From Thiobacillus sp. (GTDB taxonomy: Bacteria; Pseudomonadota; Gammaproteobacteria; Burkholderiales; Thiobacillaceae): a DNA stretch of 64,000 bases. Within the stretch, counting starts at the first letter, position 1. The number at the start of each line of letters is the position of its first letter. The notes under the pieces were generated by a model that searched no databases, was not told the DNA's origin, and saw nothing but the letters and a program-made list of their open reading frames with translations. This document shows positions 60,551 to 63,440 of this stretch, in pieces. Made by a program: the position numbers and the translations under genes. The stretch is taken from NCBI GenBank assembly GCA_040080645.1, contig JBEBIA010000003.1, positions 11,575 through 75,574 on the forward strand, given 5' to 3'.

Positions 60551-61123
60551 ATGCCTTTGCAATTGCCCGACCCGACGACTTGGCTGGATGAACATGGCGA
60601 CTATCTGTTCCGGGTAGCGCGCCGCCAACTCCATTCGGACGCGCTGGCTGAAGATGCCGTGCAGGAAACCCTGTTAGCCGCACTCGTCGCCCGCGAGCGG
60701 TTCGCGGGCGACGCCAGCGCGCGCACTTGGCTCACCGGCATTCTCAAACATAAAATCGTCGATCAAATTCGCCGCCAGATGCGCGAAACGGAAATTCCCC
60801 GCGATGCCGACGGCGAAGAGGCGCTCGACAGCCTGTTTGCGCCCGGCGGACACTGGGCAGAACCGCTGCGCCCCTGGGGCAACCCTCAATCCGAGGCAGA
60901 ACTGAGCCAGCTTCGGCGCGTTCTCGACCTGTGCGCAGATCGGCTGAAGCCGACTATGGCGCAGGTTTTCAGCCTGCGCGAAGTCAGCGGAATGGAAACC
61001 GAAGAAATTTGTAAGGAACTGAGTATCTCGGCGACGAACTGCTGGGTACTACTGCACCGCGCACGTTTGTTTATGCGGGAATGCTTGGAGAAAAACGGTT
61101 TTTCGGGAGTGCACGCATCGTGA
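60551..61123 (+). CDS. ECF sigma-70 factor (TIGR02943-like)
   Basis: AEDAVQET (region 2), [10 protein letters not shown], region 4 [20 protein letters not shown]. Confidence 0.88.
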
Positions 61124-61377
61124 AATGGCTCGTGACCTGTAAACAGAACACGGAACTTGCATCGCGCGCCATGGACGAAGGTCTGTCCTATAGCGAGCGT
61201 GTCACGATGCAGCTACACCTGCTGATTTGTAACAATTGCGCGCGGCTGAACCAGCATTTACAAATGATGCGAACGCTGTTTCGCCAGGAAACTGAATCCA
61301 GTGATGTGTCACCCGGGCTGGCACCCGCTGCCCGGCAACGCATCAAAACCGAATTGCAGAATAAGCTCGATTCCTGA
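61120..61377 (+). CDS. zf-HC2 (ZAS) anti-sigma factor, soluble
   Basis: TCK...HLLICNNC (C...HxxxCxxC), no TM; GTG start overlapping the sigma stop. Confidence 0.85.
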   Translation: MKWLVTCKQNTELASRAMDEGLSYSERVTMQLHLLICNNCARLNQHLQMMRTLFRQETESSDVSPGLAPAARQRIKTELQNKLDS

Positions 61378-61435
61378 GCCTGCATGAGGCCGACTTCCGG
61401 CCATTGTCAACGTAGTTCATTTAGGAGAGAACACT

Positions 61436-61813
61436 ATGTCGAAGAAAACCCTGATCGCCGCTGCTGTCGGCACCGCGTTTGCCGCCACCTTGGCCGCCCC
61501 GCTGGCCTCGGCTGCCGAGAATCCCTTTGCACTGTCCGGTCTGGATAAAGGCTACATGGTCGCCGAGCATAACGACGGTCATAGCAAAATGATGAAAGAA
61601 GGCAAGTGCGGTGAAGGTAAATGCGGTGCGGCCAAGAAAAAGGATGGCGACTGCGGCCACAAGGCCAAGGACGGCAAGTGCGGTGCCGAAGGCAAATGCG
61701 GCCATAGCAAAACCAAGGATGGCAAATGTGGTGAAGGTAAGTGCGGCGGCGACAAAACCAAAATGAAAGACGGCAAGTGCGGCGAAGGTAAATGCGGCGG
61801 CACGAAGAAGTAA
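61436..61813 (+). CDS. hvfA: HvfA-like secreted Cys-repeat RiPP precursor
   Basis: Sec signal (…PLASA), AENPF, nine GxCG motifs (EGKCG/DGKCG/DGDCG); strong RBS AGGAG. Confidence 0.88.
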   Translation: MSKKTLIAAAVGTAFAATLAAPLASAAENPFALSGLDKGYMVAEHNDGHSKMMKEGKCGEGKCGAAKKKDGDCGHKAKDGKCGAEGKCGHSKTKDGKCGEGKCGGDKTKMKDGKCGEGKCGGTKK

Positions 61814-61825
61814 GCTCATAACGAC

Positions 61826-62695
61826 ATGAGTTTCCCGCACCCGACCGGTGCGGGGCTGGGTTTTCGGCGAGAGTTAATTCCCGCGCTGAAAACCCGTGTC
61901 CCCGACGCCATTGAGTTTTTTGAGATCGCGCCCGAAAACTGGATTGATCTGGGTGGCGCATATGGCCGCGATTTACGCGGGTTTACCGAACGCTATCCGT
62001 TTGTCTGTCATGGCTTGTCGCTGTCGATTGGCAGCCCGGCTCCGCTCGACGAAATGCTGCTGCATAAAACACGGCAATTCATGGATGCGCATGGCATTCA
62101 GCTTTTCACCGAACATTTGTCGTATTGCTCCGACGACGGACATCTCTACGACCTGCTGCCGATTCCTTTTACCGAAGACGCAGTGAAATACGTTGCTGCT
62201 CGCGTCCGACGCGCGCAGGACATTCTTGAGCGGCGCATCGCCATCGAAAACGCGTCGTACTACACGCCGTCGCCGATTGCCGAGATGGACGAAAGCACGT
62301 TCATCCGCGCGATTCTGGCTGAGGCCGACTGCGATTTGCACCTCGACGTGAACAATGTTTACGTCAATAGCGTGAACCACCGTTTCGATCCACTCGAATT
62401 CATTCGCAGCATGCCGACCGAACGCATTGTGTACCTGCACATGGCCGGGCATTACAACGAAGCCGATGACCTGATTGTGGACACGCACGGTGCTGACGTA
62501 ATTGAGCTGGTATGGGCGCTGCTTGACGCCACCTACCGCCTTCACGGTGTTGCACCCACTTTGCTGGAACGTGATTTCAACATTCCACCGCTGGCCGAAC
62601 TGGTACACGAAGTCGAGCGAATCGCGCAGATTCAGCGTCCGCATCACCTGCCGCAGATTCGTGCATCCCATGCAGACATCCGTCAAGCCGTCTGA
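61826..62695 (+). CDS. hvfB: MNIO family (DUF692) multinuclear non-heme iron oxidase, HvfB-like
   Basis: [59 protein letters not shown]. Confidence 0.93.
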
Positions 62696-63440
62696 ACGTC
62701 TACCCTTTCAAACGTATCAGTACGCGTTTACCGCGCATTTGCGCGATCCGCACGCGCATCCGCGCCCAGCGGGGATAGAAGCGCGCCGGATCAAAATCTA
62801 CACCGAGTTGCTGTATAACAACGTTGAAGGCTTTTTGCTCGCCTGTTTTCCGGTGTTGAAGCAGATGCTCGGGGTACGCAAATGGTCGCGCATGGTACGT
62901 GCATTTTTTGCCACGCATCATAGCCACACACCCTACTTCCGGCAGATTCCAGACGAATTCATCCAGTTTTTGCAAAACGAATGGACGCCACCCGACGCCT
63001 ACCCGTCTTATCTTCTGGCGCTGGCGCATTACGAATGGATCGAGTTGGTGCTGTCGGTCTCCAACCGCAGCGCGGCGCGCGCTGCGAATGCGGCGGGCAA
63101 TCTGCTCACCGGTGTTCCGGTACTGAATCCGGTGCTGGCCAATTTACGCTACGACTGGCCGGTACATCGCATCGCCCCGCGCCGTGTGGTCAAGCCTTCT
63201 GAAACGTTTTTACTGGTGTTCCGCGACGCGGATGATCAGGTTCAGTTCACTGAAATCAATGCGTTCACTGCACGCTTGATTACCTTGCTTGAACCCGCCA
63301 CGCTCACGGGCATAGCAGCGCTGGCGCACATTGCCGCAGAAAGTCGCCACCCGAACCCGGCGCTGATTCAGCGGGCGGGCGGCGCGTTACTGGCCGATTT
63401 ACAGACCCGGGGGGTGGTGCTGGGCGCGGTCGCGGAATAA
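62670..63440 (+). CDS. hvfC: DUF2063 RiPP-recognition partner protein, HvfC-like
   Basis: [20 protein letters not shown]...[22 protein letters not shown]. Confidence 0.88.

Follow-up and report, generated by a model that had tools for sequence, protein, structure and literature searches.

Oxazolin, gonophorin, and fontiphorin are products of a single family of modified peptides, now grouped as "captophorins", and more than 24,000 loci of this class have already been described. HvfB and HvfC modify each repeat cysteine of the precursor (-4 Da apiece) and so give a copper-binding product (PMC11252979). In the revised assignment, the HvfA-type modification is a 5-thiooxazole; fontiphorin, the product of FonABC from Fontimonas thermophila, carries this group and binds several Cu(I) (up to 4 Cu). 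Most of the described loci of the class include a DoxX gene. The Neisseria operon NMB2140-2145, which encodes DoxX, the precursor, DUF692 and DUF2063 proteins, RpoE, and a ZAS anti-sigma factor, is autoregulated by sigmaE. In Haemophilus influenzae, whose hvf locus (HvfX-HvfA-HvfB-HvfC) makes oxazolin, induction of hvf by HOCl is strictly dependent on RpoE2, and control is by a 67-aa ZAS anti-sigma factor.

Two other systems are worth comparing. The bufferins of Caulobacter (BufABC plus DoxX, with sigmaF/NrsF) also arise when an MNIO and a DUF2063 partner modify the cysteines of a precursor with a signal peptide (a putative one in our case); the product is a thiooxazole with a role in metal stress, and the genes are under ECF control, as the preliminary description of our locus had correctly stated (PMC3511200). 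In the methanobactin system (MbnABC), an MNIO and its partner oxidize precursor cysteines to copper-binding heterocycles. But the methanobactin precursor carries a leader peptide and, unlike what we predict for ours, no signal peptide; the product contains oxazolone and thioamide groups, and the system is induced by copper starvation.

Here we analyze a locus in a 64,000-nucleotide stretch of DNA ("the window") from a Thiobacillus-like betaproteobacterium. We think it likely that five genes in the window form an operon for a modified peptide of the HvfA family ("EGKCG" or captophorin type), and we mean this to cover the chemistry, export, Cu(I) binding, and regulation that we propose below. 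Sequence tests establish the identity of the genes, the operon layout, the conservation of a promoter block, a hairpin at one junction, and synteny with relatives. The cluster is an intact and ordinary member of the HvfABC ("captophorin") type, and this family is already well described. What we add to prior knowledge is the distribution and loss of the sigma/anti-sigma pair, the shared promoter, and a hairpin at the hvfA/hvfB junction.

A five-gene operon without DoxX

Five co-directional genes lie on the + strand within 60551-63440, where the preliminary description had placed them, and both the open reading frames and the profile matches agree with this. The genes encode a sigma factor, an anti-sigma factor, the precursor, HvfB, and HvfC, and their junctions are, in this order, -4, +58, +12, and -26 nt. 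Overlaps or short gaps, a single conserved promoter, and the lack of a strong internal terminator in the window all point to an operon. The proposed identity of the cluster (a sigma factor, a ZAS anti-sigma factor, a putatively secreted precursor with cysteine repeats, an MNIO, and a DUF2063 protein) also held up: the ECF sigma factor, the HvfA domain, HvfB, and HvfC all score above the cut-offs of curated NCBIfam models, and the gene order is kept in 39 of 72 species-level relatives. Relics of the anti-sigma gene testify to repeated loss of the sigma/anti-sigma pair. Separately, we note that the names HvfA and HvfB have already been assigned automatically in the public annotation of close Thiobacillus relatives.

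The layout differs from that of the closest described systems. The sigmaE operon of N. meningitidis and N. gonorrhoeae (NMB2140-2145, or NGO1948-1943 for gonophorin) likewise combines the precursor, DUF692, DUF2063, ECF sigma, and ZAS genes, but its order is doxX-A-B-C-sigma-antisigma, while ours is sigma-antisigma-A-B-C with no DoxX. H. influenzae has the same kinds of regulators, an ECF sigma factor with a small ZAS anti-sigma factor in the cytoplasm, but there they are unlinked to hvf, whereas in the window they are in the operon upstream of hvfA.

H. influenzae also has a DoxX gene (HvfX). As was claimed before, the window has none: tblastn searches that used the DoxX sequences of related hvf loci as queries gave E = 0.2 at best. 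The window thus lacks one gene of the canonical four-gene hvf/captophorin core. The queries came from two Methylophilaceae relatives (loci L078 and L081) in which DoxX follows hvfC; at that position, the window has a convergent gene for a PCuAC copper chaperone.

The sigma factor and its anti-sigma factor

The first gene (60551-61123, + strand) encodes a 190-aa ECF-type member of the sigma-70 family, as judged from Pfam and NCBIfam profiles. It matches Sigma70_r2 (E = 7.6e-16) and Sigma70_r4_2 (E = 7e-11) with no match to region 3, and it exceeds the cut-offs of TIGR02937 (83.5 versus 42.9) and TIGR02943 (187.7 versus 162.2). We found no usable assignment in the literature that would place it in a particular ECF group (ECF13 or ECF18).

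The second gene (61120-61377, + strand) encodes an 85-aa ZAS anti-sigma factor that is predicted to be cytoplasmic. The listed open reading frame is 61081-61377, but the likely start is the GTG at 61120, which overlaps the stop codon of the sigma gene (GTGA) and agrees with the genes of 84-85 aa that were called in relatives; there, too, the overlap with the sigma gene is 4 nt. The protein contains C7-x25-H33-x3-C37-x2-C40, which is a full ZAS motif with all four ligand positions (defined as C/H-x23-26-H-x3-C-x2-C in PMC7907618). Besides the motif, the small size, the absence of a transmembrane or other hydrophobic segment, and the position directly after the sigma gene mark it as a ZAS protein. 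The profile matches are marginal: the score for NF052368 just passes the cut-off (50.1 versus 50), and Pfam zf-HC2, at 17.9, stays below its cut-off of 22.2. As in Neisseria, where the N-terminal cysteine is essential, the protein has this cysteine as well as HxxxCxxC. It does not resemble the regulator of the bufferins, with which the locus had been compared: their anti-sigma factor is NrsF, a membrane protein with six helices, while ours is a small cytoplasmic ZAS protein of the type of MseR (Neisseria), HrsE (Haemophilus), and RsrA.

The precursor

The hvfA-type gene (61436-61813, + strand) has a ribosome-binding site, AGGAG, at 61423-61427, and we recognized its 125-aa product from its translation and from NF050137 ("KCGExKCG_twice"), whose cut-off of 19.5 is exceeded (53.5, in three matched stretches). 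By eye, residues 1-26 (61436-61513) are a putative signal peptide: MSKK, a hydrophobic stretch, and an AxA ending (ASA|AE). A signal-peptide-like N terminus is conserved across 46 precursor homologs. The conserved region that follows is AENPFALSGLDKGYMVAEH; in the alignment of homologs, P30, F31, G39, Y40, V42, and A43 are invariant (an NPF..GY.VA block). Then come four (D/E)GKCG-x0-1-EGKCG pairs and one GDCG, or eight (D/E)GKCG motifs in all. The nine cysteines lie within residues 58-120, and every one is in a GxCG context.

This is a putatively secreted (A)EGKCGEGKCG-repeat precursor like that of H. influenzae, but it has nine cysteines rather than eight, and there is no counterpart of the two disulfide cysteines near the N terminus of HvfA. 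Similarly, fontiphorin and other captophorins have an EGKCG-repeat precursor, an MNIO, and a partner of the PME1 type; seven cysteines are modified in fontiphorin, while we count nine candidates in our peptide. The precursor has 5,724 database relatives at E <= 0.001. It scores 41 bits against the HvfA equivalog model NF050188, whose cut-off is 95, so we consider it a member of the family and do not claim orthology to H. influenzae HvfA. It matches no Pfam family and is not a DUF2282 or Buf_6/12Cys bufferin precursor; the bufferins derive from DUF2282 or Buf2 proteins instead of an EGKCG repeat. AlphaFold gave a helix at residues 5-18 and no confident fold overall (pLDDT 43.5), so we set this model aside, also as a guide to ordered metal sites in the precursor.

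The maturase and its partner

The gene for the MNIO (DUF692) maturase, hvfB, is at 61826-62695 (+ strand). Its 289-aa product matches PF05114 with 342 bits (E = 2.7e-102) and the HvfB model NF003818 with 427.7 (cut-off 360), and the HvfB model is preferred over those for BufB (253.7, below the cut-off of 310), ApyH (73.9), ChrH (42.3), and MbnB (31.8, below 325). So by score it is neither a BufB nor an MbnB, and the window has no MbnC either. The structure 3BWW in the PDB is a clear relative (E = 8.3e-79; 50% identity in our alignment A3), and HLDVNN and VDTHG align. In A3, H62, H97, E141, H172, D174, N177, H205, and H209 are invariant and D219, H221, and E248 are nearly so, which amounts to conservation of the iron ligands. 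Going by the motifs, N177, D219, and H221 probably correspond to N175, D242, and H244, the site-3 residues of HvfB that have been mutated.

The last gene, hvfC (62670-63440, + strand), encodes a 256-aa DUF2063/RRE partner protein (PME type 1). The listed open reading frame starts at 62502, but the likely start is the ATG at 62670, which leaves a 26-nt overlap with hvfB. HvfC has an N-terminal DUF2063 domain (PF09836, 92.5 bits) and an NGO1945-like C-terminal domain (PF22106, NGO1945_C, 85.4 bits), it matches NF050145 with 274.3 (cut-off 142), and its gene directly follows the MNIO gene. The preliminary description gave oxazolone/thioamide or thiooxazole groups as the products of MNIOs such as HvfB; for the HvfA type, the oxazolone/thioamide assignment is superseded by 5-thiooxazole.

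The promoter and the question of ECF control

Upstream of the sigma gene is a conserved, promoter-like block (60477-60516, + strand), which we found with a weight matrix and with pattern searches. The matrix was built from 24 related loci and has the consensus GGnTTGyCGC..CTGCMTCTAAAGTGCC. The block is its sole match in the 64-kb window (score 25.6), and the pattern searches likewise gave one match. When we scanned metagenome contigs for the 16-mer, all 13 genuine matches were upstream of the sigma gene (there were also about 100 chance matches). Thus, we found no second copy in the window, nor one beside any other gene in the metagenome scan. Two other candidates were rejected. TGCATC-N17-CGTA seemed to be an ECF -35/-10 pair, but the alignment shows that the conserved block is TCTAAAGTGCC with the upstream TTG, and CGTA is not conserved. 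A possible internal promoter before hvfA (a CGTnGTT box seen by eye) is shared by no more than about half of the close relatives. Among the RNA sequencing runs that we searched for the window sequence, none contained it; the DNA runs with the locus are metagenomes from drinking water and biofilters.

The block can be read in two ways. In sigma-70-like terms it is TTGCGT (60482-60487), a 17-nt spacer, and TACATT (60505-60510); the alternative, ECF-like -10 element would be CATCTACA (60501-60508). Across the family, the form is TTG(C/T)(C/T)G-N17-TA(A/G/C)A(G/T)T, and in its -10 hexamer, the T, A, and last T hardly vary. This fits the sigma-70 pattern (TTGnnn-N17-TAnAnT) equally well, and the GTC/CGT core that is usual in ECF -10 elements is missing. 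Since the geometry is as compatible with sigma-70 as with an ECF factor, ECF control is something that we infer. The label "ECF-controlled" in the preliminary description therefore went too far, as the sole conserved promoter has the geometry of a sigma-70 promoter and is found before hvfA even in relatives that lack the sigma gene.

It may be that the operon is linked to an ECF sigma factor but is not controlled by it. A housekeeping sigma-70 promoter would then express hvfABC and the sigma/anti-sigma pair constitutively, and the ECF factor would mainly serve unlinked targets such as msrAB. We take this idea seriously, although on balance we doubt it. Apart from the conserved hexamers, it is favored by an AT-rich stretch upstream of the promoter in several loci and by the relatives that lack the sigma pair: a TTGCCG-N17-TA(G/A/C)A(T/G)T block is directly upstream of hvfA in seven sigma-less loci (L057, L063, L069, L071, L079, L082, and L083), and in L041, the sigma and anti-sigma genes are deleted while hvfABC is intact behind the same promoter. 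Conversely, hvfABC is lost from L125 while the pair remains, which shows that the two modules can be separated. On the other hand, the homologous clusters of Neisseria and Haemophilus are strictly sigma-dependent, and because the sigma gene of Haemophilus is unlinked, the sigma-less loci may use a sigma factor that is encoded elsewhere. Also, the G, C, T, and C just 5' of the -10 hexamer are conserved as much as the hexamer itself, and they recreate the -10 motif of neisserial sigmaE: in the window's promoter family, the -10 block (C[C/A]TCTAAA) agrees with CGTCTAAH at 7 of 8 positions, and the TCTAA core is common to both. The -35 element is different, however (GTAAGGTT in Neisseria versus GGnTTGyCGC here), as is its spacing to the core. 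Finally, the -35 hexamer in the window has only 3 of its 6 positions in common with TTGACA, and a generic sigma-70 scan did not report the site. We still favor control of the operon by its own sigma factor.

RNA stems

A GC-rich palindrome, GGCCG-ACTTC-CGGCC, is located between the anti-sigma gene and hvfA (61388-61402, + strand). A GCCGG-loop-CCGGC element is found in this gap in nearly all of the relatives that have the sigma gene, and it is often followed by a run of T. We do not consider it a conserved RNA fold: RNAalifold gave no consensus structure, pair counts showed no covariation, and the window sequence folded no better than shuffled ones (z = -1.0).

At the hvfA/hvfB junction, folding identifies two adjacent stems (61812-61854, + strand), with a minimum free energy of -28.4 kcal/mol (z = -2.9; 1 of 200 shuffles was as good). 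They were also found by a scan for terminator-like elements. The first stem (61812-61833) contains the AUG of hvfB. The second, GC-rich stem (61834-61854) is CCCGCACC-CGACC-GGTGCGGG, followed by GGGUUUUC, and it is conserved in the Thiobacillus clade: 93.6% is paired in register, versus at most 54% when slid, and five sequences, including the window, have a double change from G-C to A-U.

A copper chaperone gene next door

Just outside the operon, on the - strand, is a convergent gene for a PCu(A)C copper chaperone (63480-63941; PF04314, E = 2.1e-31), whose C-terminal tail is rich in histidine (NHSHEHH). Among 73 related species loci, 30 have a convergent PCuAC gene after hvfC. In relatives, the PCuAC gene is followed by a TonB-dependent receptor and then by genes for the redox regulators RegB/RegA.

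These neighbors raise the idea that the peptide supplies copper instead of detoxifying it, i.e., that it is a periplasmic store or shuttle of Cu(I) that feeds PCu(A)C and cuproenzymes such as oxidases and denitrification enzymes. The recurring chaperone gene, the RegB/RegA genes, and the receptor (the best NCBIfam match of one is a copper-receptor model) would fit. Nevertheless, we find this quite improbable. The PCuAC gene lies on the other strand, and 43 of the 73 loci, 13 of them with the sigma/anti-sigma pair, lack it. We rejected a copper-specific receptor beside PCuAC in the relatives: the copper-receptor model scored 211 against a cut-off of 472, and a heme-receptor model scored higher in two other loci. 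And expression of the known members of the class goes up in response to excess copper, gold, or oxidants and not when copper is scarce.

Discussion

Our preferred explanation, that the operon makes an exported peptide that sequesters Cu(I), borrows its steps from characterized homologs. In the cytoplasm, the conserved N-terminal region of the precursor (125 aa) would be the binding site for HvfC, and the di-iron MNIO HvfB would then oxidize the GxCG cysteines to 5-thiooxazoles (up to nine, with 4 electrons and -4 Da for each). The Sec signal peptide would carry a Lys/Gly-rich product of about 99 residues to the periplasm, where its thiooxazole thiolates would bind and sequester Cu(I). The small, Zn-binding ZAS protein would keep the ECF sigma factor inactive until its cysteines are hit by thiol-reactive stress: oxidants of the HOCl/H2O2 type, or possibly thiophilic metals. 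The freed sigma factor would raise transcription of its own operon and probably also of unlinked envelope-repair genes such as msrAB. The hairpins at the hvfA/hvfB junction probably hold the precursor in excess over the enzymes.

The inducing signal deserves some caution. It had been proposed that this strain makes a member of the class for copper or other metal stress. The locus is indeed a member of the class, but the published inducers of MseR/HrsE-type systems are oxidants (HOCl and H2O2) and not copper, so a copper or metal trigger can only be inferred. One could go further and argue that the main role is to defend the envelope against oxidants (chlorine species and H2O2), and not a dedicated response to excess copper. 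The thiooxazole peptide might be a sacrificial or redox-active thiolate, or it might protect against copper that is mobilized by oxidants. For example, our ZAS protein resembles the redox-sensing members in that its four ligand positions are complete and it has no membrane segment; HOCl induces both RpoE2 and the hvf operon; mutants in DUF692/DUF2063 genes are sensitive to chlorite in three species; and the window sequence occurs in metagenomes from drinking water and biofilters. But all characterized products of the class are copper binders, and bufferins confer protection from copper. The conserved neighbor is a copper chaperone gene, and expression of sigmaE in N. meningitidis is reported to be unchanged by oxidative stimuli. 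So we consider a primary role in oxidant defense unlikely. We are more skeptical still of a specific version, in which, in this lineage from drinking water and biofilters, the nine-cysteine peptide without DoxX mainly scavenges chlorine-type oxidants in the periplasm, or buffers Cu(I) released by them, and is switched on by direct oxidation of the cytoplasmic ZAS protein, with the precursor:enzyme ratio set by the junction hairpin. If true, this oxidant-scavenger version would be a regulatory and functional variant that has not been described for captophorins.

The locus extends a family of copper-binding peptides to sulfur-oxidizing betaproteobacteria of drinking-water systems, although the practical value is modest. 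As a compact sigma-antisigma-hvfABC operon without DoxX, it offers a convenient minimal system from nature in which to ask which signal (oxidant or metal) induces such operons and whether DoxX is needed. Handles on how these operons are regulated come from the promoter, which loci share whether or not they have the sigma genes, from the repeated loss of that gene pair, and from the hairpin at the junction, and the experiments would be cheap.

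The operon and its products

The preliminary description of a sigma factor, a ZAS anti-sigma factor, a precursor, a DUF692 enzyme and a DUF2063 partner identified the cluster correctly: five open reading frames run in one direction at 60551-63440, and the last three match the HvfA, HvfB and HvfC models. The first gene (60551-61123, + strand) encodes an ECF-type sigma factor with Pfam domains Sigma70_r2 and r4_2, and it scores above the cut-offs for TIGR02937 (83.5 versus 42.9) and TIGR02943 (187.7 versus 162.2). The second gene is listed from 61081, but it most likely begins at the GTG at 61120, overlapping the sigma stop codon (GTGA); the resulting 85-amino-acid product (61120-61377, + strand) is the size called in relatives. 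This anti-sigma factor has C7-x25-H33-x3-C37-x2-C40, which is the complete zinc-binding anti-sigma (ZAS) motif as defined in PMC7907618; the 85 amino acids contain no hydrophobic segment. The profile match is borderline (50.1 versus a cut-off of 50 for NF052368, and 17.9, below the cut-off of 22.2, for Pfam zf-HC2).

The precursor gene hvfA (61436-61813, + strand) follows an AGGAG ribosome-binding site and encodes 125 amino acids that match the NCBIfam HvfA-family domain (53.5 versus a cut-off of 19.5). Its N-terminus resembles a signal peptide and ends ASA|AE; then come the conserved segment AENPFALSGLDKGYMVAEH and the repeats, which are four (D/E)GKCG-EGKCG pairs and a single GDCG with Cys73, so that all nine Cys lie in a GxCG context. 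The MNIO enzyme is encoded by hvfB (61826-62695, + strand; NCBIfam HvfB equivalog, 427.7 versus a cut-off of 360), and its DUF2063 partner by hvfC (+ strand; HvfC equivalog, 274.3 versus 142), which probably starts at ATG 62670, overlaps hvfB by 26 nt and extends to 63440. None of the NCBIfam models for BufB, MbnB, ApyH or ChrH reached its cut-off at this locus. The best relatives of HvfB (82-88% identity) are from Thiobacillus and Hydrogenophilales assemblies, and some of them already carry the public labels "HvfB family MNIO-type RiPP peptide maturase" and "HvfA family ... RiPP metallophore". Near-identical DNA is present in drinking-water and biofilter metagenomes; a search of RNA runs gave no match.

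Among the relatives the precursors vary widely: Cys counts span 1 to 11, and an EF-hand-like insert occurs in many. The nine-Cys, pure-repeat form in the window is at the Cys-rich end of this range. In two sigma-less Thiobacillus loci, that of Thiobacillus denitrificans DSM 12475 (L037 5544-5969) and L041 (5551-5973), the precursor's KCG motifs are few and surround an EF-hand-like calcium-binding insert (DKDGK..., DANKDGFIDKDE); EGKCG precursors of this kind are the "second type" of PMC12452194. Two tandem precursor genes precede hvfB in L016, L030, L031, L033, L043, L047, L048, L052 and L062, and in tandem loci of the Nitrosospira type, one of the two precursors often has a single Cys.

Genomic setting

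Ordinary chromosomal DNA surrounds the locus. On its upstream side are a cell-division cluster (ftsI to ftsZ), lpxC, genes for a Fic protein, a TPR-methyltransferase and an EVE protein, and the divergent argB; downstream is a convergent gene for a PCu(A)C copper chaperone (63480-63941, - strand), whose tail is rich in His. The Fic-domain protein (52317-53630) and the large TPR-plus-methyltransferase protein (56541-58880) lie between the cell-division cluster and EVE/argB. The related locus L001 has other genes upstream of EVE (TauE, an enoyl-CoA hydratase family gene and two-component system genes). In relatives (e.g., L002 11596-15998), PCu(A)C is followed by a TonB-dependent receptor, which scores below the cut-off of the copper-receptor model, and then by RegB/RegA-type redox two-component genes. 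More distant from the locus are a class A RNase P RNA (32901-33217, 226 bits) and a tRNA-Phe gene (7218-7293).

Losses among related loci

The comparison covered 80 related loci, each species being represented by a single genome, and a further three obtained by exact look-up. The sigma/anti-sigma pair is immediately 5' of hvfA in 39 of the 72 loci with sufficient upstream sequence, and a convergent PCuAC gene is present in 30 of the 73 with sufficient downstream sequence. The pair is absent from the Nitrosospira and Nitrosomonas loci and from T. denitrificans DSM 12475. Nevertheless, in Nitrosospira and T. denitrificans (L019 5380-5540, L021 and L037) hvfA is still preceded by remnants of the anti-sigma gene's 3' end (..GAATTGCAAAAG..GTGAGC..) and by the palindrome found after that gene. 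Because several pair-less loci retain such relics, the sequences indicate that the pair is ancestral and has been lost repeatedly. Deletions of both kinds are found: L041 (5320-5550) has kept the promoter and hvfABC without the sigma and anti-sigma genes, and a metagenomic locus (L125 415-1652) has kept the promoter, sigma and anti-sigma genes, with hvfABC gone and PCuAC directly next. As had been claimed, the window has no homologue of DoxX; among the loci tested, only L078 and L081, both from Methylophilaceae, have DoxX after hvfC.

Is the operon under ECF control?

A promoter-like block 5' of the sigma gene (60477-60516) is conserved, with the consensus GGnTTGyCGC..CTGCMTCTAAAGTGCC, and it is the only site of this consensus in the 64-kb window. 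Two readings fit the block. In one, the -10 block, C(C/A)TCTAAA, would suit an ECF sigma factor, as it is identical at 7 of 8 positions to the neisserial sigmaE -10 motif (CGTCTAAH), although the -35 sequence and the spacing from -35 to core differ from the neisserial promoter. In the other it is a sigma-70-type promoter: relatives show TTGCCG-N17-TAAAGT or TAGATT where the window has TTGCGT-N17-TACATT. Sigma-less relatives have a promoter of the same type immediately 5' of hvfA. A sigma factor gene at another place in the genome, the situation in H. influenzae, could account for this, and housekeeping transcription could do so equally well. A 16-mer scan of metagenome contigs found 13 genuine sites, each ahead of a sigma gene.

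We therefore infer ECF control from homologues rather than from the sequence: the promoter is conserved and its -10 resembles that of sigmaE, but its geometry also fits sigma-70 and the block persists in sigma-less relatives. In Neisseria meningitidis, NMB2140-2145 (DoxX, precursor, DUF692, DUF2063, rpoE and the ZAS anti-sigma factor MseR) is autoregulated and is co-regulated with msrAB (PMC2893595). In H. influenzae, induction of hvf by HOCl is strictly via RpoE2, which is held by HrsE, a 67-amino-acid ZAS protein (PMC7907618). Bufferins are under a different pair, in which sigmaF is partnered by the membrane protein NrsF.

In most relatives a divergent HSP20 gene separates argB from the sigma gene (L001 8137-8717 and L002 8159-8710; compare 60407-60550 in the window). 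Ahead of HSP20, on the minus strand, is CTTGAAA...CCCCAGAT, a sequence resembling a heat-shock promoter of the sigma-32 type. HSP20 is missing from the window, so argB directly adjoins the sigma promoter region. Just upstream of argB is a palindrome, TGGCGACTGCGCGTCGCCA (60449-60467, - strand), followed by a T-rich run; relatives whose argB adjoins the sigma gene have kept it along with GATTTTACGCCAA. Nitrosospira-type loci (L038, L042, L066, L075 and L076) have a different conserved element, AATTGTGACATAATATTTT, about 30 nt 5' of hvfA, a hint that this lineage has a further promoter or operator.

A hairpin at the hvfA/hvfB junction

Just inside hvfB is a GC-rich hairpin (61834-61854), followed by GGGUUUUC, that is kept throughout the Thiobacillus clade. 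In-register pairing is 93.6%, and sliding the register brings it to 54% or less. In five sequences, one of them the window, there is a double change from G-C to A-U, which in the window and in L020 replaces Arg with His in the encoded protein. The junction in the window folds with z = -2.9, and an adjoining stem buries the start codon of hvfB. We infer that these stems reduce the expression of hvfB and hvfC compared with that of the precursor. For the palindrome that separates the anti-sigma gene from hvfA, consensus folding, pair counting and shuffles gave no statistical support as an RNA structure.

Proposed function

In H. influenzae, HvfA, HvfB and HvfC make oxazolin: HvfC binds the precursor, and HvfB with HvfC carries out a 4-electron oxidation of each repeat Cys (-4 Da) to give a copper-binding product (PMC11252979). 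The Cys modification has since been reassigned to 5-thiooxazole, and a mixed-valent di-iron cluster serves as the active cofactor (bioRxiv 10.64898/2026.07.17.739211; PMC13097082). By analogy, HvfC would recognise the precursor through its conserved NPF..GY.VA region and HvfB would convert up to nine Cys to 5-thiooxazoles. Sec export and cleavage of the signal peptide would then yield a peptide of about 99 residues, which is probably disordered (the AlphaFold model of the precursor has a pLDDT of 43.5) and which would sequester Cu(I) in the periplasm. Under thiol-reactive stress the ZAS protein would let go of its sigma factor, and transcription would rise. Rival explanations are housekeeping transcription of the operon and, for the role of the system, oxidant defence or copper supply. 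Mutants in DUF692/DUF2063 genes are sensitive to chlorite in three species.

The class comprises over 24,000 MNIO-PME1 loci, about 2,000-3,000 of them with EGKCG precursors, and "captophorins" is a proposed name. The family, its chemistry and the ECF/ZAS link are already published, and close relatives are annotated automatically. What rests on our own analysis is the gene identities, the operon layout, the conserved motifs, the promoter block and the hairpin. It adds a few small points on this family: how the operon is ordered, that the window has no DoxX, that loci with and without the sigma genes share a promoter, that the sigma pair was lost repeatedly, and the hairpin at the junction.
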